A stretch of DNA of 64,000 nucleotides from Tortispora ganteri (GCA_003707115.1 PPNB01000003.1:62001-126000), one strand, 5' to 3'. Positions 15,661-62,516 are shown, counted from the stretch's first letter. The notes: generated by a model from the sequence alone, not told the origin. A program made the numbers and translations.

Positions 15661-16446
15661 TTATTTACCAATTCGCGATCGTAAATCCAAGTTCGGTTTG
15701 TCTGAAGCTTTCAATGTAGGGAACAAATCGTCACCGTCGAGTTCAATGCGGTGCCTGAGCGAACGGCGGGCGGTATCTTTGATCGACAGTCGGTTGCCGT
15801 CACGTTCTCTGTATCCAAAATTGCGAGATCCACTGGGCGACCTTGACCTATTGCGGTGTTTTCTACGTTCTTCAATCTTGCGGCGGCGCTGTTCTGCAGG
15901 GTCTCCGTAAAAGAGGTAGTATTTGCTCTTTTCGCGCGCGTTACGCTCCTTACGATCAGTAGACCGGCATTCTCTAATATACAGCTCCGATACGCGCTCT
16001 TTGGGTACATCATCCATGAGATCCTCTGCTGGTTTCTTCAATAATACTTCGGGAAGCGGTTTCGCCCTGCGTAATATACTCTTGTCGGGCAGTCCGTTAG
16101 CATAAGCAGACTCATCCGTTAACTTCAGAAGTGCTTGTGTCGCCGTCACCTCGTCTTCAAACACCAGGTTTGCCGAAGTGTCGTTTACCCATTCAATCTT
16201 TGGCCGAATCCCTAATACAAGTGATTTGGCATCTGTAGGTTTCACGTAATATCTTGTATACTCGATCAGATCATCCGTGCTCATATCGTCTAAACCCTGT
16301 ATGTTCAATGCATTTGGTCGCAAACTATAAGCGTCAGGTACTGTTGCATTACTATTTTCATAATTTTCATCATCATATGATCGTAATATTCCTCGTCCAG
16401 CATCGCCGTTCTCTGATTGGCCGACATTCAATTCGTAATCCGCCAT
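15661..16446 (-). CDS. Nuclear cap-binding protein 3-like (NCBP3/DUF2414)
   Basis: RPNALNIQGLDDMSTDD, KIEWVNDTSANLVF and DRKERNAREKSKYYL motifs. ATG at 16446. Confidence 0.85.
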   Translation of the reverse strand: MADYELNVGQSENGDAGRGILRSYDDENYENSNATVPDAYSLRPNALNIQGLDDMSTDDLIEYTRYYVKPTDAKSLVLGIRPKIEWVNDTSANLVFEDEVTATQALLKLTDESAYANGLPDKSILRRAKPLPEVLLKKPAEDLMDDVPKERVSELYIRECRSTDRKERNAREKSKYYLFYGDPAEQRRRKIEERRKHRNRSRSPSGSRNFGYRERDGNRLSIKDTARRSLRHRIELDGDDLFPTLKASDKPNLDLRSRIGK

Positions 16447-16580
16447 TTCTTTCAACTTTCGCTAAGCTGTCACAAGTAAAGGTTAGTGCAAAATCTCATA
16501 CTTTTTCCCCACTGCTTGACAACAACAATAACAATACACCTATCAATAGCAGATATCTACAATAAATCTGCCCGCATATA

Positions 16581-16871
16581 ATGCAACACGTGACTTTGGT
16601 GTCATCGGATGGATTCGAATTTATTGTTTCAATAGAGGCTGCGTCTGTCTCAGGAACGCTCAAGGCGTCGCTTTCGGACAATTTCATCGAATCCAACACG
16701 CGCAAGATTGTCCTCGACAATATGACAGGGGAACTGCTTGAAAAGGTTTGTGATTATCTCATGTACAATTACAAATATTCAAAATATCCAAATGCTGAAC
16801 TCCCTGAATTCGAAATACCCCCAGAGATCGCTCTCCAACTCTATGTAGCCGCTGATTACCTAAATGTCTAG
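16581..16871 (+). CDS. ELC1: Elongin C
   Basis: VTLVSSDGFEF, ASVSGTLK, LEKVCDYL and FEIPPEIALQLYVAADYL motifs. Confidence 0.96.
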   Translation: MQHVTLVSSDGFEFIVSIEAASVSGTLKASLSDNFIESNTRKIVLDNMTGELLEKVCDYLMYNYKYSKYPNAELPEFEIPPEIALQLYVAADYLNV

Positions 16872-17863
16872 TACACACTCGGCATTCGCGTTTCGGCCAC
16901 ACGAACATACGAAATAACACCTTGCGCAACAACTGCAATTATAACGCTCTTTTGACCTCTTCGTATGTCCTTTATGCGCCGCCCCTGTGGCTCGTCGTGC
17001 TTCATCATACATGCGTCAAACTCCTCCAGTGACGGGATCTCCGCCTCAGCATTCTGTACCCGCACATAGAAGTCGGCATTACCAGGCCTTCCCTTGCGGA
17101 ACGCTTCTTGTGGCTTCCATACTTCATAGTCAATCTGTATATCTTTGCCTGTTTGTCGCTCGCCGCTGTCTACCCTGACCGCTGCCAGCCGCCGGTACAC
17201 TTCCTTCGTCGTCAGCGTCCCGCCTGGGACCGCACTGCTCTCACGCCCGCATATCTGTTTCGTAACCCATCCCTTCATAACTCGTATCCATCGTACTATG
17301 TCACATATCACCGCCCAAGCCCTGTCAGCCATCCGCGCCAGGCCGCGAGCAATTGATCGCCAGCCACCGGTATCCAACATAGCCGCACCCAATCCGATCC
17401 GCGGTCGCCGCACAATATAGCCATTCCGTTTCAGGTTGCTGTACACCTGAAATTTCTCGATACTGCATGCGCCAATCATAGCTGCATACGCACCTTCTAG
17501 GCTTAGTGGAACCCCGTTCGCGCGACACATCAGCGTACCTCGTTCGATCAGGTACAATGCCTCTTCGGGCTCCAGCCATATGCCGCTGCTATTCTGATAT
17601 CCCATCGTCAAAAAATGTGTTCCAGATGCCGCACTCACGCGCGCTTTACATAGCTCGCTCATCCATTCCGCTTCTATCTTGTTCTTCGCAGAATGCATCC
17701 GGTCGCTTGCCAGTGCACGATACATCGCTGCCCGCGACTTTTCCAGCTTCGTCTCCTGCATTTCAGACTCTTCATTCAATGTCTCTTTTTCACCGCGCTT
17801 CGGCAGTTCCTCCAGCAAAGACCAGTCTGCGCCGTCTTCGCCTTCTTCGAACTCTTCCGCCAT
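16868..17863 (-). CDS. SEN54: tRNA-splicing endonuclease subunit Sen54
   Basis: LPKRGEK, G.HF.TMG, WLEPEEALYLIERG, FQVYSNLKRNGYIV, YEVWKP and IIAVVAQGVISY motifs. Confidence 0.93.
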   Translation of the reverse strand: MAEEFEEGEDGADWSLLEELPKRGEKETLNEESEMQETKLEKSRAAMYRALASDRMHSAKNKIEAEWMSELCKARVSAASGTHFLTMGYQNSSGIWLEPEEALYLIERGTLMCRANGVPLSLEGAYAAMIGACSIEKFQVYSNLKRNGYIVRRPRIGLGAAMLDTGGWRSIARGLARMADRAWAVICDIVRWIRVMKGWVTKQICGRESSAVPGGTLTTKEVYRRLAAVRVDSGERQTGKDIQIDYEVWKPQEAFRKGRPGNADFYVRVQNAEAEIPSLEEFDACMMKHDEPQGRRIKDIRRGQKSVIIAVVAQGVISYVRVAETRMPSVY

Positions 17864-19641: not shown

Positions 19642-19919
19642 CTCGGTGCCACCTTAGCTGCAATCTCGCGTTTCCGTTAATCCTACTTCTTCTGTAAGTA
19701 ATCTACCAATCTTCTGTCCAAGCTAGTCTATTTTTCAGAGCACGGTAGCGCTCTGACGAGGTGGTGTCGTCGTAAAAAATAAAAAGCACGAACGTGCTCC
19801 TAAGAACCATAAACTCATTTTAGTTTTCAGGGTTAGGGCAGATGTAACTACTCTAATCTGGATTCAGCGGTAAACTTGATGTAGATGACATTAAATCTGA
19901 ACAGTACACGCCACTGCTG

Positions 19920-21236: not shown

Positions 21237-21319
21237 TGACAACTCTGGGATTCGAACCCAGGCCCCCGAAGAGATCAGGACCTTAACCTGACGCCTTAGA
21301 CCAACTCGGCCAAATTGCC
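21237..21319 (-). tRNA. tRNA-Leu(AAG), intronless, long variable arm
   Basis: Minus strand reads GGCAATTTGGCCGAGTTGGTCTAAGGCG TCAGG-TTAAGGT-CCTGA TCTCTTCGGGGG CCTGGGTTCGAATCCCAG AGTTGTCA. All stems pair and a T-run terminator follows. Confidence 0.97.
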
Positions 21320-21753
21320 ATAATACAAGCCTATTATGAGCCTGCATCTATATATTCTGATATTCTTAATATTTTCGTAATATATTATATATTATATATA
21401 AGAAGACTATATAAAAGCAATCGTTATACCATTAAACGACCTCTAACTGACATAATTCAAATAATTATAAATAACTTAAGCCAAGTAAATGTTTGAAAAA
21501 GAATAATATCAATTGTTGAGCTTTTGAGATCATAAATAAAAGTAATAGTCAATGATTTTCGCCGACAATTATGAGAAAATCATAGTGTTTGGTCCCAAAT
21601 TCAGCTGTTGAACCATGTGATTTCCACAATTGAGTACATGTTCTCGAGAACCGGTATTAATTGTACTCAAATAACTAACTTAATGTAGTAACTAACTAAC
21701 TACTACTATTATATATATTAAAATTGCGTCAAAATATACACATATAACTAAAT

Positions 21754-21931
21754 TGTAACGTAATCAGCTGAGAAATGCCTTAGACTTCTCAGATTTTAGC
21801 ATTATACACGTGTATATACATCTACATTCGTTAGATCGGCTCCTCACAAAACAGTAACGTAAAGCGCTCCACATAGTTGTTAGTGGCCACCACTCCAGCG
21901 TCAATAATAGACAAAGTTATGTACAGTTACA
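21754..21931. mobile_element. Possible degenerate solo LTR (178 bp)
   Basis: TGTAAC...GTTACA termini. Flanks TAAAT/TGAAT match 4 of 5 (TSD-like). It lies between a tRNA gene and a 5S gene. Confidence 0.35.
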
Positions 21932-22296
21932 TGAATAATCTAGACTATAGCAAGAAAAATGTATGCAACAGAGTGACCGGAATCGAGTCGTTATCTATTG
22001 AGATTGTAACACAAATGCATATACCCTTGGACTAATACCACACATACAAGCTATTAAGGACTTATGGTATACATCAGTATGTGCCATAGAATTGTAATGT
22101 CGTTCATAGACACCGAATCAAGCATTTGGCCCGATAAAGAGTACATTCTATCGATCGCGTAAACACCTGTAAACACTCGATGATCTATAGTCAGTGAAGC
22201 ATTGCATCTATATTTTTCTATTATCTATCGCTACTATTGTTCAAGAATAATGATCAAGAGCAATAATATTAAAAAATATTATGTAAATTAGCAAAA

Positions 22297-22416
22297 AGAT
22301 TGCAGCACCTACGATTCCACTGTGGTCTCCCACCAGAGTACTAAGCAGGCTCTCAGCAGCTTAACTACAGTTGATCGGACGGGGAACGGTGTTTTCTGCT
22401 GGATATGGCCGCAACC
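22297..22416 (-). rRNA. 5S rRNA (dispersed copy)
   Basis: Minus strand reads GGTTGCGGCCATATC...CCGATCAACTGTAGTTAAGC...GTGCTGCAATCT, 120 nt, followed by a T-run. Confidence 0.98.
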
Positions 22417-22650
22417 GAAAGTAATTATAGGTTAAGTTATATATACTGCATGTACGGGTTAGGGTAAAATAAGAAATATTAATGAACAATTACGTTGGTT
22501 TGGAGCAGGTTTAGTGGGATATGAATTAATCGAATCAGTAGATAGGAACAATATTAATACATAAGCATATATAGCATAAATATGCGCTAGTAGTAGTTGT
22601 AGAGGCGGGCGTAATAATGGAATCACAATAAGTACCAGCTAGAATAGTGT

Positions 22651-22698
22651 AAAGAGTAACTCAACGAAAGAGTAACTTAACGAAAGAATAACTCAACG
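22651..22698. repeat. 3 x 16-bp tandem repeat AAAGARTAACTYAACG
   Basis: Units at 22651, 22667 and 22683. Confidence 0.9.
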
Positions 22699-23161
22699 TT
22701 TCTTTCCTTTCTTTTTTGATTTAGATTTAGATGAAGTAGATGTCTTAGAAATAGTAGACATTGATGTATCGGGAGTAGGTGTAATCTCTGGCTCATCAAC
22801 TTCCATTGGTATTGCTTTTGATTGAGAAGAGATACTTAGATACTCACTGTCATCGACATTGTGACCAAGCATCTGAGGAGACGTCAGTTTTGCTAGTGAA
22901 TTTATAATTCTAAATACTTCATTAGATCTGCGAAGTTTTATTTTGAGACATCTGCCGGATTTGTCGTCGAATGTTTTTACTCTGAACAGTCCCCTGTTGT
23001 TGCGATCTAGCTTGTAACTCATTGTCACACGGGCCTTAGTATGTTAGAATGCTAATCTGTGAAAGATATAATTTAAGCAGCTCTAAAAAAAAAATAATAC
23101 TTACATCAGGGTATTGCTGGATCAAATAGTACGTGAGATCGATAAACCGTTGCGTATTCAT
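22693..23161 (-). CDS. SRP21: Signal recognition particle Alu-domain subunit SRP9/Srp21. Exons 23161-23105 and 23034-22693.
   Basis: Spliced product MNTQRFIDLTYYLIQQYPD|ARVTMSYK..FRVKTFDDKSGRCLKIK..EVFRII with a Lys-rich tail. Intron 23104-23035 (GTAAGT..TTCTAAC..AAG) keeps the frame. Confidence 0.85.
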
Positions 23162-23281
23162 GATAAATTCCGTCCGAGGGGGTGGTAAAGGTTGAGGAAA
23201 GTAGAGTTTTTATCGTGGGAAGAGGAAGGGTCCCCGTATTAGAAGACTGAGGTTCGCGTCAATAACTAACCCATAATGATC

Positions 23282-28254: not shown

Positions 28255-30438
28255 TCATAAATGAATTTTTTTTATAGGAGTAGTAGCGCTAGATGACTCT
28301 ATGTGCCGCTTGATCTTCTCCGTAGACTTCCCCATCTTCGCTTCTTCGATGGCCGGCGGTTTTACTGGGGTGTGTAGTGACTCCGGCTGAGGCTGCTCTT
28401 GCGACTCTAGATATTTCGTGGTGAACCCAAGAAAACGGCCTTTGGTGACGAACAATACAACCCGGTATCCTTCACGTAGAACAACTGTATTGTTGCGTCC
28501 AACTTTTGTTTCATTAACCAAACACCCGTTCGTCGACCGGTCGTACAAGCGAACATTCCATTGACCGTTCGCTTGCAGCTTTGGCGCTAGTATGCAATGC
28601 AGGTTAGAAACGATCTTATCGTTTAGACAAACGTTATTTTGTGGTGACCGTCCGACCGTGACTCTCTGGCCTTTACGGACGTAGATGCTGTCACATGGAA
28701 CACTAGCGGAAAGAGGTTCGAGCACCAGGATCGTGTCTGGAGGATATACAGGTGGCTCCAAATGATCTACATCGCGCAGACCAGCCATATCGTAGCAATC
28801 AGTGTTCAATGGCTTACCCGAGCCAACGAAAAGATCATATGATCCTGATACGCACCGAGACTCAGCTTTCATAAGGCTATTACCGTGAATAGTCCGGTCA
28901 GAGTCGCTTTCCTCTCCAATGCTGTTATCCGATATGTAATACAGTTTCTCTCTCTCTTTTAATTTGCCAACTGCCTGCTGTGAGAACTCTTGGCTTATCA
29001 GCTCAATCGCATGCGGACTATCTGCATCAGATTCAGGCTCAAGCTCAGTAACTTGTTCAGCATTTTCTTTCCTGATACCCGAATGCGAGTTTGTCGGAGG
29101 TGCTTTGCCGTTCGGCGGCAGTGAGAAGGGGTAAGAATTGCTACCAGAAGACTCAATTTCTGAGAAGACGTTGCTGCTCCCTGAGACCCAGATGTGTTGC
29201 ATTGCTGAGAGTGCAGAAGGTCTTTTTTCAGGGTTTGGCTGTAGAAGGAACGATAGGAAGTCAATCGCATTCTGAGACGAGTGGGCTTCCTTGAGAGGCG
29301 CCATGAGGAAATTGGCTGAAACAATAGAGCGATGCATTTCGTCCTGAGTTAGACCACTGAATGGGAACGAGGCAGTGAGGGAGACATAGGCTATGCAGCC
29401 TATGCTCCATATGTCGACGGCGTTTGAATATACTTTGTACGGGGATGTCGGAGAAGCCGAGCGGCTTTGCAGTATCTCTGGCGCCAAGTAGGCAAAAGTA
29501 CCGCAAAACGTCTTGAGAAGGCTGCTGGGACCGTTTACCTTAGCCAGGCCAAAATCGCACACCTTTACTCTTATTGGGGTGAGGGACTGGATGAGGATGT
29601 TTTCAGGCTTGAGGTCGCGGTGAGAGATGCCGCGTGAGTGAACATAATAGATCGCGTCAAGGATTTGCAAAAGAACAGACGAGGAATCACGTTCAGATAG
29701 CGGACCTGAGTTCATAATATGGTCCATTAGGTCACCGTTGGGTACGTAGTCCATAATTAGATATGTGTGCGATGGCTGCTTGTATGTCTCGTGGAGGGCG
29801 ACGATGTTCGGATGATGGAGTGACATAAGGACATTGATTTCTCTTTCTATAGCATCTGAAGCTAGAGGGAGTTTTGTTTGTATAGCCTTGATCGCGTAGA
29901 TGGTACCTGACTGACGATGGACGGCTTTGAGTACTTTTGCGAACGCGCCGGAGCCGACTGTTTCTGTAATGTGGTACTTGTTTAAAAGTTCCGGAAGTAA
30001 TATGGAAGAGGTTTGAGTGGCGTTAGGGCAGTGGAAGATGAAGCGAATCTGGTCATCGTGTGAAGAAGGAGCGACACATATTTCGTCGCCATGGACTAGC
30101 AGGTGTAATCTATTGGGCTGCAGCTTAGAGACGTTCACCCATGTGCCGTTGGTTGAGTGATCTTCGATCAAATAGGAAGGCGAGGGTGTAGGCTGATAGT
30201 GTATGAGGAAATGGACGCTACTGTATTTATACTGGGGGCCCAGATAAAGATCTGCGTTTTTGCTGCGACCGGCGGACCACGACTGCGGGGACTCGGCTGA
30301 TTTGAGATGGAGCTTGAAAGGTGGAGGTAGAGACTGACTAGTACCGCGCGTCGACCATATCAATGATGCTGGCGTAGCCACAGGCGGTAGAAGCTGGTCG
30401 TTAGTCGACTGCGTAAGTTCGATGTTCTGAGTAGTCAT
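28255..30438 (-). CDS. RAD53: DNA-damage checkpoint kinase Rad53 (FHA-kinase-FHA)
   Basis: N-terminal TQ motifs, FHA1 (GR..S.H..STNGT), kinase (HRDLKPEN, DFG, APE), FHA2 (GRS..SNLH..STNG). ATG at 30438. Confidence 0.9.
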   Translation of the reverse strand: MTTQNIELTQSTNDQLLPPVATPASLIWSTRGTSQSLPPPFKLHLKSAESPQSWSAGRSKNADLYLGPQYKYSSVHFLIHYQPTPSPSYLIEDHSTNGTWVNVSKLQPNRLHLLVHGDEICVAPSSHDDQIRFIFHCPNATQTSSILLPELLNKYHITETVGSGAFAKVLKAVHRQSGTIYAIKAIQTKLPLASDAIEREINVLMSLHHPNIVALHETYKQPSHTYLIMDYVPNGDLMDHIMNSGPLSERDSSSVLLQILDAIYYVHSRGISHRDLKPENILIQSLTPIRVKVCDFGLAKVNGPSSLLKTFCGTFAYLAPEILQSRSASPTSPYKVYSNAVDIWSIGCIAYVSLTASFPFSGLTQDEMHRSIVSANFLMAPLKEAHSSQNAIDFLSFLLQPNPEKRPSALSAMQHIWVSGSSNVFSEIESSGSNSYPFSLPPNGKAPPTNSHSGIRKENAEQVTELEPESDADSPHAIELISQEFSQQAVGKLKEREKLYYISDNSIGEESDSDRTIHGNSLMKAESRCVSGSYDLFVGSGKPLNTDCYDMAGLRDVDHLEPPVYPPDTILVLEPLSASVPCDSIYVRKGQRVTVGRSPQNNVCLNDKIVSNLHCILAPKLQANGQWNVRLYDRSTNGCLVNETKVGRNNTVVLREGYRVVLFVTKGRFLGFTTKYLESQEQPQPESLHTPVKPPAIEEAKMGKSTEKIKRHIESSSATTPIKKIHL

Positions 30439-31586
30439 TGAAGCGCGTTTAACGCGACTTTGGACCACGCCAAGTAACTATTTGGTACGAGTCTAGGTCG
30501 GTCAGGGATAGGGGTATACGGTGGTGGTGGTGCGTTATGTTGTGTTTTGCGTGCAGAGTAAGATATTATATTAGATTAGAGTTTTACAGAGACACATAGT
30601 AGGTGCACCAACTACCTGTAAATTCGGTCATATGAGCGCCTAAGAATACAGTAAATATGTATATTGTATATAATATCTGGTAGAAGCATAATAGAAGTTG
30701 AAATACACACTTGGTATACATTTTGAAACGAATACGCTGATCGATATAGAACAATAACGGTATCCACAGTAAACTCTAAAACCATTAAAGTTCAACAAAT
30801 ACCCCAAGCAAGGGCTAAGAGTTGTTGTAAGTTTAGAGCCGCTACATGTTGTAACAGAATAGATGTCCTAAAAAAATAGAAAAAATTAGGTGTTCGGTGG
30901 TCTCTTGTAATAGTAACGTACTTGCTCAGCATCACTGACGTATATAGAGTAGTTGGTGGCGGAAACAAGAAAGTTTGTCTTCGTTTAGACCTTATAAGAG
31001 ATATTAACCTTAATACATAGTAAAGTTCAATGATTGCCTGATTCCAAGCGGTAGTGTCAGCACTTGCTAAAAGAGATAAAATAGTTATTGATATTGCAGT
31101 TTTCAGTATTTCACTCAGTGTCAGGTTATAACAAATACGGTGACACAAGCAGACCAAATGTTCTTGTTGGTAAATTCAATTTGCAAAGGGCAGGTTTCGT
31201 TACATTAATCACTTTAATGTTTCCCGTTCTAGGCAAAGAAATCATATTAGAGTTAAAGCCTAAAACCTTTCCTCATTGGATTCCCGCTCAATGCTTTATC
31301 GCTGCATTAAACGTATCATTTTTTGCCTTTCCGACTCCAAGTAGCCGTCAATAAGTGAACAATTTCATTTAGTGGAAAATTTTCTACGGTTTTCTTTTGG
31401 CGCTGGATACCTTTGCAGGAGTATACAGGTGCTGAAAGTTTGTAGTGTTTTTTCTGCTGTACAAGTATGCTGACCGGTCAAAGTAATCATCCCACTGTTC
31501 ACAGATCGACAACCAAAGCTTTTGCTTCTCGTAGACAACATCCGATTTAAAAATGGAACCTTGCAAAATATTCACATAATTAAAAA

Positions 31587-31727
31587 CTGCACATATCGTT
31601 AGCAGATATAATTTTTCATAGCTTTGCTTGCTTCTCGACATGCATGCGCTTGTATTTTTGTCGGTATATAGTATACCAAACACACCCCCCACAAAGCCTT
31701 TTAGGTTTGACTGAAACAACCACTCAC
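31587..31727 (-). other. Spliceosomal intron-like element (141 nt) in a non-coding region
   Basis: GTGAGT donor at 31727, TGCTAAC branch point at 31604-31598, CAG acceptor ending at 31587. Confidence 0.55.
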
Positions 31728-32260
31728 AAACTCTATCGCATTCTAAGCCTATGCGCAGCTGATTAATTTACTCTTGAAAAAGCCAAAATAAGTTATTTCT
31801 TATCCCTACTTCTTGCTATCCTGCCGCCCAGGCGTAATCGTACCGCCTGGAGCATAGGCCGATCGCTGGCGTGATCCAAAGCGATCACACAGTTACCCAA
31901 CACGAACTTCACCCGCAGCGCATTTTGCATGTATCACACTCGGACGAGCGAACGTCACAGAACTAGGCCAACCATTTCGCTCCTGTCGTCACCAATCAGA
32001 CCTATTGCCGGAACCACAAGGAAACTACGTAGGACCGAAAAATAGAGTGCTAAATCTTAAAATGGCTTGCAAAACTCTATAATAGGACTATGGGTTCCTC
32101 ATAAGCCCCGAGAAACCCGCACCCACCGTCCTAATTGGGGTTTAGGGACCTTTTGGCCTGTCCCTTGCCCTCTTTTACTACCCACATAGCCTATCCGGCA
32201 GCAAAAAAGGCACCACTCTAATCTAAGCTCTAAAAACTCGGCATTTTCTGTCAATTTTCC
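31728..32260 (-). ncRNA. Candidate large structured ncRNA (telomerase-RNA-like); boundaries approximate
   Basis: At least eight hand-paired helices with G-U pairs favouring the minus strand and no ORF. See findings. Confidence 0.45.
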
Positions 32261-32361
32261 CGGAAAAATACACAGTTAATTCACAGGCATTTGTCCCTAG
32301 TGTGGTTTTCCTTCTGATTTTAGCTTTTTTTGTCCCGCATTACCGCGCATCTTTCCAAACT

Positions 32362-33041
32362 GTAAGTATACATCTTTCTTCCTCTTGTCGTCGCCATTCG
32401 CTGTTTACACCCGCTTTGCTCCCCCTCCTCTGTTCTCTGTCTGGGTTTTATTTGGCGTAGCTATTCAGATCGCTCTAGGTTCTCTTGTCTCGGCTGGAAA
32501 ATTTATCTTGCTTCGTCTTGGTTGGTCCACTTATTAAGCCTTCGTCTCTTTCCGCCGCTGGGGGTTTCGGCCTCCTTTCCTCACTTCTCCTCGCCTGTTA
32601 AAACGTTTCTCCACTGTCGCTCCAACTGCTTTTTTGTCACGTGAGGTCTTTTTTTTTTTCCTATCGCGTCATTCGATATTAAGAATTCAGTTCACAATTC
32701 CTGCGAGTTTATCCGCGACGGTTCCCCGGGCGTTTATACTACCCAGAAAAGTAACTTCCAGATGATCAACCTCTCTGCGCATCTAGCTCCAGCATTAATA
32801 CTTAATTTCATTTCGCCGCTACCTCCATCTTTTCAATGTTCGTGACAGATCGGCCCCTTTCGCTATAAAGCCATTCCGCGGCAACTAGCTCTATCGCCGT
32901 CTTGCCCGATCTTTCCGGACTCCCTACGCCCTGACCCTGAACCTGCGTCCTCTCGCTCGCCAGCCCCATCCCCAAAAACGCACTCTACTCCGCACCGTTC
33001 CAACCTTGTCAGCACTCGCATAAACATATTACTAACCTTAG
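32362..33041 (+). other. Probable 5'UTR intron of SWI1 (donor uncertain)
   Basis: GTAAGT at 32362, TACTAAC at 33030-33036, TAG at 33039-33041, 28 nt before the ATG. Confidence 0.5.
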
Positions 33042-33068
33042 GCCCTTAGAGGTTATTTCCGCGTATAG

Positions 33069-35213
33069 ATGTCGGAACCGTGGCTAGGCGATCAAGGCGA
33101 TGATCCTTTGCGCCTAACTGATATCGATGTCCCTCAAAATGATATCTTTGGAATTCAAAACAATCCAATAGATTCCTCACTATTCTCTTCGAACCCTCCT
33201 CACCTCTCTAACCAGCCTTTCAGTTCACTCTCTTCTTCTACTTTCTCAGATTCACAAGACGATTTCTCTTTAGCAAATAATCTGTCTAATCCGTTCAATA
33301 ATTCTAATGTTCCACAACCACAGGTACAGCTGCAACAGTCACAGCAACAACAGCAACAACAGCCGCAGCCGCATCAACAGACGCGACCTATAATGCAGAA
33401 TACCATACATCGACAGGCGCAACAACAAACCCACCAAACGCCTTTTGGTGCCTCTCCGCCTGCCATCGCTTCTCCAGCCCATGAACTCTTTTCCATGCCT
33501 GCGAATCAGATGCTCGATGCGAAAAGGCATAGAACGTCATCCGCAGACAGTGCTGTTTTCTCTCAGTATCAAGCATCACAAGCTCCCCAAGTTCAGCAGA
33601 GTCATCAAGTTCCGCAAGGTTCGCAAGGTTCGCAAGGTCCACAAAGCCATCAAGTACCACAATCTCCTCTACACAATCCTGCAAGGCCTGTAAGACCCTC
33701 AGACAATTACCAGCGAGACTTGCAGTACGCCCAGCGTATGCAAAATCAATATGGTCATGCTTCTCCTGCTGCATCATCCTCTCCTTCTCACAATACTCAG
33801 CAAACACAACAAACACAAACGCAACACCTGCAGCAAAAACAGCAACAACAACCCGCACAACAACGACAACAGCAACTAGCGCAACAGCGACAGCGACAAC
33901 CATCACACCAATCGCAACAGGTATATATACAGGATCAGCAACCCATGCGCCAGATGGCTCAACAGCAACAGCAACAGCAACAGCAGCAGCAGCAACAGCA
34001 GCAACAGCAGTACTTGCAAAATAACAGGAATAGAGATTATGCCCCTATTCCAAATCAATCAGGTGTCCAACCTGGAGCTTTTCAAGGTTCACAACAGTAT
34101 AAAGATATACAAGCAGCCCCTTCCCCTTCCCAAATGGCCAATGCCTCCATTCCGACGGGTTCTCGCCCTCGTAACCAAATCCCTCAGTATTCTCCGCCGC
34201 AGACGCCGTCACAACCACAACAAATGCAGCAAAACATGCAACAAAATTTGCAGCAGAGAAATCCAAATCAGCGATTCTCGCCTCAAATGGTCCTCCCCTC
34301 TGAGAATAAACCTAACGCTGGCCAGCAGCAGCGCCAGTCGACTGTTCCTCAGAATCGGCCGCGGCTTACTCCCAGACAACAACAGTTTTTAGTTGAACAA
34401 GTTCAACTAAAGGTGAGAACCGGTGAGATCGCAGCTGATAAGAACGGGAAACCAAGGCCTACGCCCCAAGAACTGCATCGAATTGTCCAAGAGAATATAT
34501 CTCATTTTGCTGCGTTAGGGCAACAAACTGCAGGAAGTCCTGGTGCGAATGTCATAAATAACATCGGACCACCAAGGAACGCTATTGGAACCCCCGGCGA
34601 CCTAAATGGGTCTTTTCCGACTACTGACCCTCAAGTTGGCCCTGCTTCTGTTTCTAGCACGGCCATGGGTCAACGCACAAAAGGATCTACGTCGAACGAT
34701 ATGCAAAACTCTCAAACTGCTAGTAGCCCTATGGACTGGGCCAGAGCACAAGGATCTCCTGCTATGGATCACCAAGATGCTTCAAGTTCCCGTGCTAATG
34801 TCAATCAAGAAACTAGCATTAAAATGAATAAAATGAGCGCGCAACCTCCAGGCATGCTAGGCTCTGTCACTTCCACCAGCCAACAAAATGCCGTTCCTGG
34901 AGAGCAATTCATTAAAAGTCTTTTCGACTTTATGCGTAAGCGCGGAACTCCTATCACTTCCTGGCCTACGCTAAACAATCGCAAGTTTCCTCTGGTATCT
35001 TTATATTTCCAGGTTATGAAACTCGGCGGTTCAAGGGCTGTCACCTCTAAAGGGATGTGGCCTGCCGTTGTTAGAGAGCTTGGCTACGATGCTACTAATG
35101 AGCCTCATATATTGGACCAGGTGATGCTCATATATCAAAATTTTCTTCAATCTTACGAGACCGCCTGGATCAGTAACATGCAGAAGCAACCTATGCTCAG
35201 ACAACAGAGACAA

Positions 35214-35250
<37 letters not shown>

Positions 35251-35264
35251 AACAACAACAACAA

Positions 35265-35296
<32 letters not shown>

Positions 35297-37886
35297 ATAC
35301 CTCGGTGGGCAAATGCCATCACAGAACTTTCCACCCGAAGCGCAAAATCGGCGACAATCATCTGCTGGCTCACCACCCCAAATACTTCAAGGACAACAGC
35401 AGAGAGTGAAAGGCCTTCAGCCATCTATAGCCCCTCAACCACAGACTCCAATGAGTGCGTCTGCTCTGAGTCCGGCAGCTGCTACTCCAGGAGCCTCAAT
35501 TATGATGCAAGCCGGCATGCGACAGCAACAAGATAGTCACATACCTGAGCGAACGAACAATTTTGGATTTTCTGAAGTTCAAAATAGTTCTAACTCTGCG
35601 ACACCTATGGGCTCTAAAGGGATTGAACATAAAGAACTGAACAGTTTGGCTGAAACTGAATTCCAAGGTCTGTCTCAGCAGAAGGTGTCGCTGCAGTTAT
35701 CGCAGAATTCTCCTATTCCAAGGCCAGATTCAGTCCAGTTGAGACGGCCCAGTGGCAATTTTCCGGATTCTGTTTCTAGCACAGTATCTTTTGGTCGCGG
35801 TGATGGTTCGGATGGATTTCAAACACCAAGACCCATTGCTGCTATCACACCGGGCACAGGGATGGGCGGGCCTAGAAATGCGGCACCTCCACCTAGTGAA
35901 AAGAAGAGAAAGCAAAGGTCGAACTCACAGCTTTCTGGACCCTCTTCAGTGAGACAGAAAACTGCTGCTAATAGTCCTGCTACTGCGTATTCTCCGGCCA
36001 ATTCCAAGGCGCCCACTCCGTCTTCGACCGTCGCTGTTGATATTGCTCAAGATCCCGCAGAACCTAGTGAGCGGATTCTTGCTATAGGTACACCTTCTTC
36101 CGATGTTATACCAGATGAGAAGTCTGTCGATGGGATGGAAAAACACTACACCGACTGTTATATACCGAAAACAGGATTTTTGGATGGGCTAGGTGGAGTT
36201 GATCCGCGCTCCCTTGCAGCAGCTGGTACAGAATCAGAATTTTTAAACCCTCCTTTTCCTACGTTGCACGAGCTTGGCGAGGTGAATCTCCATGCTATTA
36301 CAATGGGCCTAAGAAGCGGTATAGATGGAGAAGTTAGACAAAGTCTTAACACGTTAATTCTTCTTTCTTCAGATCCAAATATACCGTTGCCTTTGCAGAC
36401 ATGCCCTGGACTGTTAGATGCTCTTGTTGATTATGCTACTGCGCAACTTGACGAATTAATATCCCTACAATCTAAAGGGATGAACGAGTTTAATCCGGCT
36501 AAACTTTGCATGGGTGAAGAGCCATACGACGAAGTGCGGCTGCGACTAGTTTCATACTCCTTTCTGTTAGACGAAGGTCGGGAAAATATTGATCTTGCCA
36601 CCAATGTACCTGATGTCATTTCGGATGAATGGAAACGAGAGCTTGCCTCATTGCGATTACTCAGTGTGATGCTTGTGCTTCGTAATGCGTCATTCAACAA
36701 TCTTAACAGTCAGTTGATGAGCGCTGATAGTGACACGTTTGATTTCATGTTGCGCCTAGCTAATTGTTTATTGGAGAACTCATACTGGCGTGCAAGTTTG
36801 AAGCGAAAACTTGGGGATGCCATTTACCAGGAAAAGCAGGACGAAGCTGTAATGCGCATTGTTCGACCTGTACTATTCTCCTATACCAATTCACTGGATT
36901 GTCTGAAAGATGTTGTGACAATACTGTCCAATATCGCACACTATGCCATGGTTAGATCAGAGTTTGATGCACGCGTTATATTGACGCTGGCATTAACGTT
37001 TGCACCTGACCCCGATCCATTCGATAGTCACGCTGTAATTCAAGAGAATGGAGATAAAATTGTGACCACTCCCGGAAGTCTCAACGAAGGACTCTTTTTC
37101 GTTTCCTACAATCCAGGTGTTCACAGATATCTAGGAGTTGCGATTGATTTCTTCACCAAATTTCTAGTGAAAGACGGGCAATGTCATTTCTATTTTGAAA
37201 AGATGTTGAAGGGATCGAGATTTCAGCCTCTAGGAAAGCCAGAATTGTATAACCTGACACGAATGTTCGGGATGGCTATTTCCACATTACCAAGAAGTGA
37301 CCTTGGTGTTATTCCCAGAGTGTTTGAGTCTAGAAGGGCTCTTCTCGAGCAAAGTTGGTTAGCTGCGGATATGTTAGCGCGAATGCTACCGGAGTATGAC
37401 AGTGGAGTTGCGGATGCGGATAAGGCGGAAGTTGAAGGCCAAACGGATAATTTGATTAAGAACAATGAGATGGCCAAGTTGTGGCTTAATTCAAGGGACG
37501 GGTTCGCAACGTGTATATTAAGGGTTGCGCTGTCACTTGGAGCCATAATGGTCCCCCCTCCTGCTGTACCCGCTGGAGGGATAGCAGGAAACAGACGAAA
37601 CATTCCTGTATTTGAGCCCAATCCGTTCTCTCGACTAACACAGAGAGGGATGTCTATTCTGTTGACTCTTTGCAGCAAAGCTTTTGGTAAAAGTGGAGCC
37701 AGAAGCGCTGTCAGTGAAACTACTACGGTTCCTATGCATCAGTCAGGATCAACATCAGTGCTACCTCTTGGAATGATACCTAAAGATGATGCTATGCTTG
37801 GTGCATTGTTGGCGGTACAGATGGATCCTGTTGTTGTGCAGCAATTGTGCACATTGGTACCGGATACGCTCCAGAGTGTAGTTTAG
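33069..37886 (+). CDS. SWI1: SWI/SNF ARID subunit Swi1/Sol1
   Basis: Q-rich N-terminus, ARID (FIKSLFDFMRKRGTPI..LYFQVMKLGG..W..V..LG..Y..FL..YE) and a BAF250-like C-terminal region (LGEVNLHAITMGLRSGIDGEVRQSL, LRNASF). Confidence 0.9.
35211..35297 (+). repeat. CAG/CAA poly-Gln tract (second tract at ~33960-34010)
   Basis: Uninterrupted CAR codons. Confidence 0.95.
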
Positions 37887-41158: not shown

Positions 41159-41645
41159 GTAAGCTTACTATTCTTCTTTTGATGCAGGAAATCACTATTT
41201 GCATGTGTTTAGTTGTATATTCCTTTGTTCCTATTTACTGATTGCACATTGATCTTACTGGTCATGTAATCGCTTACTGGCTTACTTACTCTAATTGATT
41301 GTCACCAGTATGTTATTGAATTGCAATTGAATATCTCCTATAATTTGTCAATTCCCTATTATGCCATGTTCTATATTTACCAAGTCTTTACTTCTACTTC
41401 TAAACTCCGTTAGCACAATCATCGGATTTAATTAACCTCTATTGTTCCGAAACCTCCCAGTACAGGAGGAGATCTTCCGATTCGTTAATAACGTTGCGCA
41501 TGCCTAAAGCTTATGGCACATCACTCGATCACATGACCCACAATCCAAGTATTTTTGGCAGTATCACAATCTTGAATTACGCTATCGCTATTTAACACTT
41601 GCATTATCTATCACTTCATCTTAGCTAGTACTAACTCATTTATAG
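41159..41645 (+). other. Probable 5'UTR intron of the YTP1-like gene
   Basis: AG|GTAAGC at 41159 (alternative GTATGT at 41308), TACTAAC at 41629-41635, TAG ending at 41645, 5 nt before the ATG. Confidence 0.6.
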
Positions 41646-41650
41646 TCCTA

Positions 41651-43549
41651 ATGAAACTATCTGTGCTTCTATATACTGCCTCGATATCTGCTCTCGTAAT
41701 AGAAAAGCCTATTAATGACAACACTATAGCCCGAGCAAAAGAAGTGGCGAAACTGCATCCTCTCTATTATAGACATGAGAGCCACGATGTGACTTCAGGA
41801 ACTATGGACATGGATATGGACATGTCTGAAGACCATTCGCCTCACGAAATACATAAACAATCTGGACATTCTGAGCATTCAGAATCAATGCATATGCATA
41901 TGAGCCCCGACTGCGAAAAGAATCCTTCCTTATGTGAATACATAAAACCTGAAATACCTAAGAAGATACTCGATCAAGCACCCGATGACGAAACCAGGGA
42001 ATTATGGAAGTCATATGACGCAAGCTCTTTCTTAAGATGGCCTGAACACCGAGGTGCTGCCGTATTTCACATGATCTTAGTATCAATTGCTTGGATTGTT
42101 GTATATCCATTGTCAATAGCCTTGGAAGCATCGAATAGCCCTCTTTACTACCCTGTTTTTACTGCATTTATGGCTCTTCACCTTTTCTCTTCGTTTGTAC
42201 TGATGGCATACTTCTCTTCAGTACCAGATCTATATCCGAACAACTGCTACCCTCGAATGCTGTTTGTAAGCACGTTAATACTACTTGTATACTCATTGGC
42301 TGTGTACATTAAAGGAATGTCACGCGTGCTTGGAATAAGTCACGGCGACACGTTACCCTACGCAAAACGCATGGATGACTGCATACCTTTAGGTGATTAC
42401 GATCCTGAGGGTCGTGCTTCATCTGATTCTGGTCTTGCATCACTCTCTCCCATAGAGGACGACATAGTTAGCGATAGCATCAACTTATTCACATTTTCCA
42501 ATGGCGTGCCATTTGAATACAGATTGATGTCCTGGTTTGAAAGTAAACTTTCACCATTTGTAGCCAACCGCCCTTGGCTTAACAGGATACTCACTGGATT
42601 CAACCGTTTATCTAGTATAATATGTTCTTTACTAACGCGTCCCATGCTGCTTTTAGGAGCTTCACACATTCTAATCATGGTATCTGTTCTGAATGGTATG
42701 GGCGTGGGATCTAAGGTATTCAACTTGTTGGCTCATCTTATCAAGGGCAGTGTTTTCTTTTACTACGGAATCTTTGCGTTCTGCAAGACGTTAGGATGTT
42801 TTGCTGACTGGGGCTGGGCCTGGAATATTAAGCCACCATCTACATCGCGGTTAATTAATGCTATTCCTTCTAGCGAGTTCGTTGAAGCTTCACTAATTTT
42901 GCTTTACGGATCCACGAATATATTCTTGGAGCATTTAGGAAATGCTGGTGGCTCTTGGTCTGCGATGGATTTACAACATGTCTCTATTGCATTTTTATAT
43001 TTAGGCTGTGGAATATGTGGAGTTATTTTTGAATCCAAAACAGCTCGCAATTTGTTTAATTATAGCTTGAACAGCATCGGAATTCACAATGGTGATGCTT
43101 CTGCTATTGCACCTGTGCAGTATAAGTATTCATTCAATCCTTTTCCGGCATTCACTGTATTCTGGACAGGTGCATTAATGTCGCAGCATCAACAGATGAC
43201 TATTTTGTCTACTGCAATCCACATGGCTTGGGGATACTTGCTTTCGGCTGGCGCTATTCTTCGTTTTTTGACTTATAGCATCATGTATATACGACCTCCT
43301 GAATCATATCTTCCCTCGAGACCTATCACCGAAATATTTGCTTCTTTTTGCTTGATATGTGGAGGCATGGTGTTCTGCTTATCTAATGCCCAAACGGTTG
43401 AGGCGATGCTTCACATGAAACTTTCTATTATGTTTGTTCTCAATGTGAGCGTCGGAATCTCTATCTTGTTTATGGCTTGGCTTATGATTTTGCTTGTTGT
43501 CAAAGGATGGGGTTTCAAACGTGCTGCTATTGCTGCAGGCTCTGCTTAA
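41651..43549 (+). CDS. Ytp1-like (DUF2427 + Ytp1) multi-pass membrane protein
   Basis: PDLYPNNCY, LAHLIKGSVFFYYG, GWAWN, SEFVE, FLEHL, DLQH and YLPSRPITE motifs. Confidence 0.88.
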   Translation: MKLSVLLYTASISALVIEKPINDNTIARAKEVAKLHPLYYRHESHDVTSGTMDMDMDMSEDHSPHEIHKQSGHSEHSESMHMHMSPDCEKNPSLCEYIKPEIPKKILDQAPDDETRELWKSYDASSFLRWPEHRGAAVFHMILVSIAWIVVYPLSIALEASNSPLYYPVFTAFMALHLFSSFVLMAYFSSVPDLYPNNCYPRMLFVSTLILLVYSLAVYIKGMSRVLGISHGDTLPYAKRMDDCIPLGDYDPEGRASSDSGLASLSPIEDDIVSDSINLFTFSNGVPFEYRLMSWFESKLSPFVANRPWLNRILTGFNRLSSIICSLLTRPMLLLGASHILIMVSVLNGMGVGSKVFNLLAHLIKGSVFFYYGIFAFCKTLGCFADWGWAWNIKPPSTSRLINAIPSSEFVEASLILLYGSTNIFLEHLGNAGGSWSAMDLQHVSIAFLYLGCGICGVIFESKTARNLFNYSLNSIGIHNGDASAIAPVQYKYSFNPFPAFTVFWTGALMSQHQQMTILSTAIHMAWGYLLSAGAILRFLTYSIMYIRPPESYLPSRPITEIFASFCLICGGMVFCLSNAQTVEAMLHMKLSIMFVLNVSVGISILFMAWLMILLVVKGWGFKRAAIAAGSA

Positions 43550-60779: not shown

Positions 60780-62516
60780 CTATGAAAACACAGAAGTAAT
60801 TTTCGTAAGTTTACCACGAAGTTTCTTTGCCAGCGTTTGCTTTGGAAGATCCTCCGCATAGACAAACGTTCGAGTGACAAGGTTGAAAATAGTGCCAAAT
60901 GCCAATGCAATCACTGTACTCGTAAGTATAATAACATTATAAGGCATGCTGAAATCAGGGGTGGGTAATGAGAGCAACGAACTCGTAGTGCGAAACACAG
61001 CCCTTGGCGACAAAGAATCAGTAAGAACTTCGATAATAGCTGGAGAGATGTCAAATCCTCTATTAGCATCTGGCGGGTATTCATTATAATAGAGTAAACT
61101 CTTCTCAAACTGATACATTGTAACAATTTTGTGACCTGCAGGGATAGTTATTAACATTTCAATATGCGAGGGAGAGACTCGAGGTTGAGCCGGTTTGTAA
61201 TATAGCAATTGGACAATATCAGAAGAGACATTGGAAGCCGAAAAGGAGCCGGCAGCAACTTCGGTACCCACTGAGTCGAATAAGGTATAAGTGAAAGAAT
61301 GAAGATATACTCGCATGAACCAAGGAAGTACTTCATATGTGACAAATGACACGGGAGAATTACTAGAAGTACTCTTATAAACGGAATGAAACCCACCACG
61401 TTCCTGGCCCCATCCGACTAGATGCCGGCTAGCAAGAATTGGAGAAGGGGTTTTAGGGAGAACCGACTCACGCGTTTCAGAGTGTATGGATAAATCAAAA
61501 TCGGATTCAGGAGGCAGAACATAGCAGATCTGGTCTGTGCTTTTAGCTGCGGGGGAAAGTTTGCCAGTAGCAGTGACAGACCAGTTTTCTGTAGGGATAT
61601 GAAGACATATTTGAGGTGACTCTGAGGTGATTTTGGACAGACAAGCACCGTTCTTTATCGGTGAACCAAACAGGTCCGAGAGGGTAACATTGAGTTCGCC
61701 AATGCCCGGAACACGGGGATAGCAGATTCCGCCCTGCGGGTTACTGTATTCTCGAGAGGAGTCGCACTTGACGGCGTCATAAGGTTCTGGTTCAGGAACA
61801 GGGTTAACGCGGCGCTCGAGAGTTCTATCGACATGCAGAACAGCGTGTATAGACTGGCGCAAATAGAGATGGCCGTCATCAAGGGACAGGTCAATTGACA
61901 TGGACTGCCACTGAGATTGGAAAAGATGGTGGCCGTCTAAAAGGGAGGAGACACCAGCAGCACCTCTGCATGGTAGAAGTTTAAGATAGGGGGTAAGGTT
62001 CTCCGTGCAGACAGGCTCACTTGGGAGAGAGCCGTGAAACAGGTAGAGAGAGTGGTCAGTTTCGTGTGCACCAAGTACAGATTTTGGAGATGTGGTGTGG
62101 GCGGAGTCAATAAAGTTGAGAGATGCGCAAAACATTCCTGACAAGCTATTTGCAAGTAAGAACCAGGATGCCTCGGCGTCAGAGTAGGAGTCAGCTGCAA
62201 TACGGGCCCAGAGTTCTACACCTGTTCCAGCGATATTGGCGCCATTGTTCGGAGTGAGGCCCCAATTGTCTGCATCCCAATAGCCCTTTCCAAAACGAAG
62301 ATGAAGTTCTGAAGCATTAGAAGATGCAAGAATACCCTCAAGAACACGCGGGAACAGCTGGTGGTGGTGTGAGACAGCACTGGACAGGTTGAAGTCAAAC
62401 GAGACGAGCCAGTGCTCGCCGGTCATGGGCGTGATATCAAGCCGCTCATCATATGCATTAGCCAACACGCCAGAGGTTAATGTCAGCAGCAGCACCCACA
62501 AATCCAGCAACTTCAT
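60780..62516 (-). CDS. GPI16: GPI transamidase subunit Gpi16/PIG-T
   Basis: LSGMFCASLNF, EPVCTENLTPYLKLLPC, YPPDANRGF and LPTPDFSMPYNVIILTST motifs. Confidence 0.97.
   Translation of the reverse strand: MKLLDLWVLLLTLTSGVLANAYDERLDITPMTGEHWLVSFDFNLSSAVSHHHQLFPRVLEGILASSNASELHLRFGKGYWDADNWGLTPNNGANIAGTGVELWARIAADSYSDAEASWFLLANSLSGMFCASLNFIDSAHTTSPKSVLGAHETDHSLYLFHGSLPSEPVCTENLTPYLKLLPCRGAAGVSSLLDGHHLFQSQWQSMSIDLSLDDGHLYLRQSIHAVLHVDRTLERRVNPVPEPEPYDAVKCDSSREYSNPQGGICYPRVPGIGELNVTLSDLFGSPIKNGACLSKITSESPQICLHIPTENWSVTATGKLSPAAKSTDQICYVLPPESDFDLSIHSETRESVLPKTPSPILASRHLVGWGQERGGFHSVYKSTSSNSPVSFVTYEVLPWFMRVYLHSFTYTLFDSVGTEVAAGSFSASNVSSDIVQLLYYKPAQPRVSPSHIEMLITIPAGHKIVTMYQFEKSLLYYNEYPPDANRGFDISPAIIEVLTDSLSPRAVFRTTSSLLSLPTPDFSMPYNVIILTSTVIALAFGTIFNLVTRTFVYAEDLPKQTLAKKLRGKLTKITSVFS

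Follow-up and report, generated by a model that had tools for sequence, protein, structure and literature searches.

Telomerase RNAs (TERs) evolve too fast for homology searches, and most budding-yeast orders are for this reason without a known one (PMC6115765). The closest described systems for a compact, basal candidate are the TERs of Hansenula (Ogataea) polymorpha and of the Yarrowia clade, to which promoter sites of TTAGGG-reading Myb factors may be added. Here, we compare with these systems positions 31587 to 32260 of a 64,000-nucleotide (nt) stretch of Tortispora ganteri DNA (GCA_003707115.1, PPNB01000003.1:62001-126000; this whole stretch is referred to as the window, and all coordinates are counted along it), for which the initial annotation had proposed a TER-like non-coding RNA (ncRNA) on the minus strand. 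Tortispora belongs to the order Trigonopsidales, a deep branch among the budding yeasts, and the window represents an intron-poor genome, with coding sequence accounting for 78 % of its length. The Gpi16 protein encoded at 60780-62516 (minus strand) matches that of Tortispora caseinolytica NRRL Y-17796 at 91 % identity across 97 % of its length, with 46 % for the second-best match. Our preferred reading, to which we assign a probability of roughly 40 %, is that the stretch may be part of an unusually long upstream or leader region of the adjacent SWI1-like gene that carries a site for a TTAGGG-type factor.

TERs of the Yarrowia clade are described as coming from basal budding yeasts with TTAGGG-like repeats and as standing alone in large intergenic gaps; helices enclose their core, their Sm site is imperfect, and possible splice signals are present (PMC6746865). 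In all of this, they recall the candidate. They differ by their size of ~950 nt and by a conserved junction and a triple-helix pseudoknot that are backed by covariation and deletion tests, and their reported synteny (FRE2-FRE3) is unrelated to the RAD53-SWI1 interval considered here (PMC6746865). HpTER of H. polymorpha is likewise similar as a small TER whose template is located near the 5' third and which also features a boundary helix, a pseudoknot and a junction. As far as its report describes it, HpTER lacks a canonical Sm site as well and uses a GUGAGU donor with the branch site just beyond the mature 3' end (PMC3851723). In contrast to the candidate, it measures 680-689 nt, its junction has a conserved P6.1-like element and an A linker, and its branch site reads UACUAAC (PMC3851723). 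The candidate would span ~500 nt and is devoid of the junction signature, and its UGCUAAC follows 120 nt downstream.

TTAGGG-type Myb factors act at promoters, as exemplified by Tbf1 at promoters of yeast small nucleolar RNAs (snoRNAs) and other genes, as well as by Tay1 and Teb1. A preference for TTAGGG is reported for Tay1 (PMC7857110). In common with sites of such factors, the stretch displays a single G-rich TTAGGG site in gene-free DNA, with a putative first exon ending ~215 bp further downstream, and the motif recurs at other promoters of the same window. Unlike those sites, however, the copy in the candidate contains one additional T and one additional G, and a single site would leave 400 bp of GC-rich sequence beyond it unexplained.

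A proposed long upstream region of the SWI1-like gene

The distance between the start codons of the RAD53-like and the SWI1-like gene amounts to 2,630 bp, as compared to 20-697 bp in the other seven divergent pairs of the window. Given this unusual size, the gap likely harbors something that is not annotated. Judging from its splice signals, a leader intron of 680 nt is probable for the SWI1-like gene: the donor GTAAGTAT at 32362-69 agrees in all 8 bases, the terminal AG lies at 33040-41 and places the intron end 28 nt before the ATG at 33069, and an in-frame TAG stands directly ahead of this ATG. The same GTAAGTAT serves as donor at 23104 in a small intron-containing gene. A similar arrangement is found at the gene starting at 41651, where TACTAAC and TAG occur just before the ATG (41629-41651) and a GTATGT donor 321 nt upstream. 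The intron-like sequence of the SWI1-like gene has a GC content of 49 % and a pyrimidine content of 66 %, both unusually high, and is alignable with a sister species.

If this intron is real, SWI1 transcription has to start upstream of 32362, which would place the promoter over 32100-32350. A/T tracts, which are typical of open promoters, fill 32200-32340, and the G-run site GGGGTTTAGGG, the plus-strand form of a C-rich tract that the initial annotation regarded as a possible telomerase template, is located ~215 bp upstream of the donor at 32362. According to this scenario, a non-coding first exon of SWI1 would end at the donor GTAAGTAT (32362), the 680-nt leader intron would be removed just before the ATG, and the promoter, possibly together with the whole first exon, would overlie 31700-32360 and thus the 5' part of the proposed RNA. 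Within this promoter, GGGGTTTAGGG would be bound by a Myb factor of the Tbf1/Tay1 type that marks or opens the promoter, a function that we also suppose for the sites at 19830 and 22456. The helices of the minus strand would then be a by-product of G+U-rich antisense sequence or represent DNA palindromes.

The plus strand is poor in G (15-18 % G, GC skew -0.22 to -0.32), and this bias is unbroken from 31633 to ~34500, that is, into the SWI1 coding sequence. Of 20 genes, 14 likewise have a sense strand depleted of G over the 150 nt directly ahead of them, as does the other putative leader intron. As the G-poor plus strand runs on without interruption from a switch at the TATA-like palindrome (31663-31677), a long non-coding first exon of SWI1 starting near 31720 is possible.

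The TTAGGG-type motif in the window

The hexamer TTAGGG/CCCTAA occurs 13 times in the window, with 10 coding and 3 intergenic copies. The extended form G3-4 T2-3 A G3 is shared by all three intergenic copies (19833, 22459 and 32142) and by just one of the ten coding ones, and the motif family C3+TA1-4C3+ is represented by 4 members versus 0.95 expected. Two of the intergenic copies are identical GGGTTAGGG / CCCTAACCC sites at 19830-19838 and 22456-22464. The former is placed centrally in a divergent promoter of 278 bp; the latter precedes a dispersed 5S rRNA gene (22297-22416, minus strand) by 45 nt and is followed by TATATATA. From their placement, both look like a promoter element for a TTAGGG factor, in one case at a gene transcribed by RNA polymerase III. 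The third extended intergenic copy is the proposed template tract, and the tract family as a whole has the appearance of a promoter element to which a TTAGGG-reading Myb factor of the Tbf1/Tay1 type would bind.

Predicted structure and splice signals of the candidate

All elements that the initial annotation listed for the stretch were recovered, in place or shifted by a few bases. The 6-bp helix AGGGAC/GTCCCT at 32165-60/32149-44 forms 6 of 6 Watson-Crick pairs, and the C-rich tract CCCTAAACCCC, which has no other exact copy within the window, shares its first four bases with it. The 9-bp hairpin at 32118-10/32100-092 (one G-U pair) is present, as are the 7-bp hairpin at 31886-31861, with which an 8-bp hairpin competes, and the three-way junction with its closing helix GCCTATGC/GCATAGGC (8 of 8 pairs; RNA strands GCCUAUGC/GCAUAGGC), a 7-bp hairpin (31850-31828) and a long arm of A/G versus U. 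The first hairpin, with its G-U pairs, had been drawn with 16 bp and folds with 14 bp after a shift of one register. Both stems of the suggested pseudoknot can be drawn, stem 2 being formed by AGCCATTTT/GAAATGGTT with 9 bp including 2 G-U pairs, at a spacing of 10 nt from stem 1. Each of the two stems, however, has a probability of 0 in the nested ensemble, in the case of stem 1 because ACUCUAU pairs instead with AUAGAGU at 31736-31730, and loop 1 consists of UUU only. Robust helices in this ensemble include helix 2 (~0.8), the 9-bp hairpin (0.66-0.99) and the helices of the junction (0.95-1.0).

The minus strand of 31729-32260 (532 nt) reaches a minimum free energy (MFE) of -174.1 kcal/mol, as compared to -162.3 +/- 6.2 kcal/mol for shuffled sequences (z -1.91; 3 of 100 shuffles are as good), whereas the plus strand yields a z-score of -0.39. 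The minus strand thus surpasses both 97 of 100 shuffles and its complement, but the z-score is modest, with equal-length minus-strand controls at -1.36 (32400-32931), +1.13 (33400-33931) and -0.59 (30800-31331). A scan of 29000-34624 in 150-nt windows gave z-scores of at most -2 in 10 of 148 strand-windows, including 2 of the 10 on the minus strand of the candidate; these two cover 31700-31924 (-2.1 and -2.6), and coding windows go down to -3.7 and -4.8. G-U pairs, which had been taken to favor the minus strand consistently, are indeed numerous (35 of the 177 MFE pairs, 20 %), but with 29 % G and 18 % C in the candidate RNA strand this argument is in part an effect of composition. The intron-like signals GTGAGT (31727-22), TGCTAAC (31604-598) and CAG (end at 31587) all occur and are no commoner than chance: triplets of donor, CTAAC and YAG number 5 in the window versus 12.7 +/- 3.8 in first-order Markov sequences, and the splice signal is therefore without statistical weight. 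Overall, the case that the structural and splice elements of the candidate exceed chance is weak.

In agreement with the view that no open reading frame (ORF) accounts for the region, ATG-initiated ORFs of at least 60 aa are absent from 31642-32260. A hidden coding exon was rejected as well, the longest stop-to-stop frames in 31642-32400 comprising 58-78 codons and the longest ATG-ORFs 25-45 aa.

Comparison with a sister species and within the species

Contigs of a sister species (run X3), ~90 % identical in coding sequence, were aligned with the window at a threshold of 80 %. They show 100 differences in 612 positions over 30753-31364, 13 in 175 over 31633-31807 (which includes the palindrome GGTATACTATATACC) and 321 in 3,278 over 31920-35197, while the blocks 31514-31633 and 31807-31920 are of equal length and fall below 80 %. 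Conserved are accordingly the template tract, the hairpins, the pseudoknot region and everything on to SWI1; diverged are the 5' half of the junction (the 31807-31920 block) and the branch site. An 85-aa ORF at 31384-31641 sits in blocks that are replaced or diverged in the sister species and was rejected as a gene. Contigs of the same species as the window (runs X1 and X2) have no differences within 31587-32260, which says little because just 23 substitutions, clumped, occur in 11 kb.

Hallmarks of telomerase RNA

The conserved TER junction has linkers L1=0, L2=A and L3=GU, with A-U at the first and third pairs of stem 3 (PMC2094081). The folded junction of the candidate departs from this consensus, as L1 is U, L2 and L3 are 0, and stem 3 starts with G-C, C-G and G-U. 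A single match to the signature A/ANAN...NUNU/GU was encountered on the minus strand of the gap, at 31168; it does not fold as a junction and was rejected. A P6.1-like hairpin comprises a 4-bp stem and a 5-nt NUNGN loop and has not been found in budding yeasts (PMC3592445). The caveat of the initial annotation that a clear P6.1 hairpin is lacking was borne out by the absence of any such 4-bp/NUNGN hairpin from the minus strand of 32260-31729; weak matches at 31684/31683 lie beyond the donor, at a background of 1.3 per kb and strand. The same is true for its caveat on the Sm site: relative to the consensus AU(5-6)GPu, as quoted in PMC3851723, the best site is AUUUUGG (U4) at 31789-31783, which would need more U and is paired in the fold. 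Since HpTER and the TER of N. crassa likewise do without a canonical Sm site, this failure is weak evidence.

TER pseudoknots feature a U-rich loop, usually with 4-5 invariant U residues, that forms a triple helix (PMC3592445). Loop 1 of the candidate has 3 U residues, with the 10-nt spacing between stem 2 and stem 1 mentioned above. It had also been cautioned that the tract can itself pair, and its first four bases (CCCU) in fact have an unpaired probability of 0.01-0.11, with 0.36-0.77 for the remainder of the tract. Finally, the covariance-model check against Rfam did not return a telomerase RNA: no telomerase family reached the gathering score in the whole window, and the five sub-threshold matches (E <= 10) within 30400-33100 are at chance level and include none to telomerase. 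This outcome is expected because the clade is distant (PMC6115765).

With respect to telomere repeats, basal budding yeasts are reported to retain TTAGGG-like ones (PMC7857110), and for two Lipomyces species the repeats TTTGAGGG and TTTTAGTAGGG are given (PMC6692504). By analogy, a TTTAGGG-like telomere repeat would be plausible for such a lineage. For Tortispora itself, no telomere repeat was found in the literature searched, and supplementary tables may list one.

Weighing the readings

A compact TER of ~500 nt (or ~930 nt if it started after the minus-strand TATAAA at 32738-32733) would use CCCUAAACCC(C) as template for TTTAGGG or TTTAGGGG, the helix 32165-32144 as template boundary and spliceosomal cleavage at 31728 for 3'-end formation. 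The tract CCCUAAACCCC, unique in the window, indeed has a template-like direct redundancy of 3 nt (CCC...CCC, period 7 or 8), a probable helix adjoins it on the 5' side, and the order of elements fits, from the hairpins via a possible pseudoknot (UUU loop, AUUUU:GAAAU stem) to the junction. GUGAGU is moreover the donor described for 3'-end formation of the H. polymorpha TER (PMC3851723), TTAGGG-like repeats with extra T residues are reported from deep-branching yeasts (PMC6692504, PMC7857110), and no TER is annotated beyond a few clades (PMC6115765). Were it real, this would be the first TER from the Trigonopsidales and the smallest in fungi, with a plant-type TTTAGGG(G) template, an end produced at a GUGAGU donor by spliceosomal cleavage and a junction that has lost the signature common to yeasts and vertebrates; such a compact basal TER would help to reconstruct the path from a vertebrate-like core to the long RNAs of yeasts. 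Against this stand, besides the deviating junction, the short pseudoknot loop, the missing P6.1-like hairpin and the partly paired template, the location of the 5' half of the junction and of the branch site in blocks that diverged in the sister species, and splice signals at chance level in a genome whose credible introns favor GTATGT or GTAAGTAT together with NACTAAC. In addition, the tract matches a promoter motif with further copies in the window, the 5' end would clash with the SWI1 promoter or first exon, and there is a prior of one such gene per ~9.5 Mb genome. On balance, the feasible tests lean against a TER, which we regard as unlikely. The lack of a telomerase match in Rfam, of the junction signature and of a P6.1-like hairpin counts in favor of the SWI1 upstream region. 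A different minus-strand ncRNA, divergent from the SWI1 promoter, with a start at ~32050-32230 and an end at ~31600-31730, is rather doubtful but would fit several observations; it could be a structured small RNA made by RNA polymerase II and outside the Rfam families, or a divergent transcript of the promoter, whether stable or unstable. Cryptic unstable, stable unannotated and Xrn1-sensitive unstable transcripts (CUTs, SUTs and XUTs) are usually neither GC-rich nor conserved. Like these, a minus-strand RNA would arise in opposite orientation to the adjoining promoter of a coding gene; unlike them, the candidate stretch is both GC-rich and conserved. For an RNA of this kind speak the very large, ORF-free gap with a GC-rich island inside it, the difference between the strands in folding energy with the local minima over 31700-31924, and junction helices at a probability of 0.98. 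Furthermore, 31633-31807 and the sequence from 31920 onward are alignable to the sister species and the diverged 31807-31920 has kept its length, as a variable stem might, and CCCTAAACCCC followed ~55 nt on by the TATA-like TATTATAG recalls the layout before the 5S gene. The z-scores, however, remain inside the range of controls and coding sequence, a fifth of the predicted pairs are G-U, neither Rfam (beyond the five chance-level matches at E <= 10) nor a search by eye for C/D or H/ACA box patterns offers an identity, and conservation continues through 32260-33069 and is thus not specific to the stretch.

It is very unlikely that the stretch is nothing specific, that is, non-coding DNA under weak or no constraint in which helices arise by chance from skewed composition. 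Chance alone would produce about two perfect 8-bp helices from the ~140,000 position pairs in 530 nt, the z-scores are modest and the pseudoknot stems are disfavored in the ensemble, but most of the stretch aligns at ~90 % to the sister species while neighboring blocks fall below 80 %, its GC content is 10 points above that of other spacers, and the gap far exceeds every other divergent gap. The upstream or leader region of SWI1, which we prefer, has difficulties of its own. The tract carries three T residues and a pyrimidine before CCCTAA, unlike both GGGTTAGGG sites, and with only three intergenic copies of the motif the number is small. A first exon from near 31720 would hold four upstream ATGs, and even given the intron, ~1 kb of the RAD53-SWI1 gap remains unexplained. 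Likewise, 31729-32260 has a GC content of 47-48 % versus 30-39 % in five other intergenic stretches, and its minus-strand fold is superior to nearly all shuffles and to the three control blocks. No reading fully explains the GC-rich stretch, the size of the gap and the 112-nt diverged block of kept length, ours included. If the SWI1 upstream region is the right answer, the finding is an ordinary one, and it would imply that a telomere-like tract and hairpins are insufficient to call a TER where the motif is a promoter element.

Features of the stretch and further genes of the window

Table 1. Positions of the predicted elements in and around the candidate stretch (coordinates of the window).
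Feature	Position	Strand	Basis or remark
Putative 680-nt SWI1 leader intron, GTAAGTAT ... TACTAAC (33030-36) CTTAG	32362..33041	+	donor, branch-site and AG signals
Hairpin 1, 14-bp stem with small inner hairpin	32210-32197/32182-32169	-	MFE fold
Helix AGGGAC/GUCCCU, boundary-helix candidate, overlaps first 4 tract bases	32144..32165	-	pair probability 0.78-0.85
Tract CCCTAAACCCC (GGGGTTTAGGG on plus strand), template candidate or TTAGGG-type factor site	32137..32147	-	
Longer stem-loop UAGGAC.../...GUCCUA around the 9-bp hairpin	32083..32133	-	MFE fold; inner pairs 0.66-0.99
Candidate pseudoknot stem 1, AUAGAGU/ACUCUAU, 7/7 pairs; loop holds stem-2 strand AGCCAUUUU (32067-32059)	32042..32080	-	
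Candidate pseudoknot stem 2, 3' strand GAAAUGGUU	31970..31978	-	9 bp, 2 G-U
Mutually exclusive hairpins, 8 bp (31890-83/31876-69) and 7 bp (31886-80/31867-61)	31861..31890	-	fold
Three-way junction, closing helix with 7-bp hairpin and purine-versus-U arm	31747..31860	-	helix probabilities 0.95-1.0
AUUUUGG, best Sm-like site, 55 nt ahead of donor, within predicted arm	31783..31789	-	
Intron-like signals GTGAGT, TGCTAAC, CAG	31587..31727	-	present, not above chance
Palindrome GGTATACTATATACC, TATA-like on either strand	31663..31677	.	plus strand turns G-poor here

The position of the stretch between RAD53 and SWI1 had been correctly assigned. The RAD53-like kinase (28255-30438, minus strand) contains a protein kinase domain and two FHA stretches, and its best database relatives carry the name RAD53 at identities of just 34-35 %. 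In a metagenome scan, this protein led to six loci, each encoding a distant kinase (29-34 % identity). The SWI1-like gene (33069-37886, plus strand) encodes a 1605-aa protein with an ARID domain, and its residues 1-330 gave no match at E <= 1e-10. Exact look-ups of three neighboring proteins were likewise without a match in the collection searched. The upstream region of RAD53 is unusually long, too: ~600 bp of it (30753-31364) contain no credible ORF and are alignable to the sister species at ~84 %, with flanking blocks that are replaced or diverged. Of the 23 substitutions that separate the window from the other contigs of the species, 8 are concentrated in a 313-bp segment of the RAD53-like coding sequence (29458-29770).

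Several further identities of the stretch were considered and rejected. The minus strand reads AUACUUAC at 32369-32362, which suggested U1 small nuclear RNA; the next two bases differ from the invariant 5' end of U1, Rfam gave no U1 match, and 32369-32362 is a perfect plus-strand donor. RNase P/MRP, the signal recognition particle RNA, U2-U6 and the snoRNA families had neither an Rfam match nor a box pattern recognizable by eye. A repeat or transposon relic was dismissed, as there is no second copy in the window and the best off-diagonal self-match spans 26 bp (E 0.14).

Elsewhere in the window, the gene 41651-43549 is YTP1-like, and its putative leader intron (41308-41646, plus strand) runs from GTATGT to TACTAAC TCATTTATAG, with its end 5 nt ahead of the ATG at 41651. 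On the minus strand, a single gene (15661-17863) may comprise the ORFs 16868-17863 and 15661-16446 as its two exons, joined by a putative intron GTATGT (16910) ... CACTAAC (16488) ... CAG. The ORF-poor region 21400-22250 (minus strand), between a tRNA gene (21237-21319) and the 5S gene, includes an intron-like GTATGT at 22047 with CACTAAC at 21885 and may hold another small or non-coding gene. An unlisted small gene at 22695-23165 (minus strand) begins near 23160, and its short first exon is followed by the donor GTAAGTAT at 23104 and an intron of ~70-100 nt; a K/S-rich open frame extends to ~22695, next to a 16-nt tandem repeat in three copies at 22651-22698.

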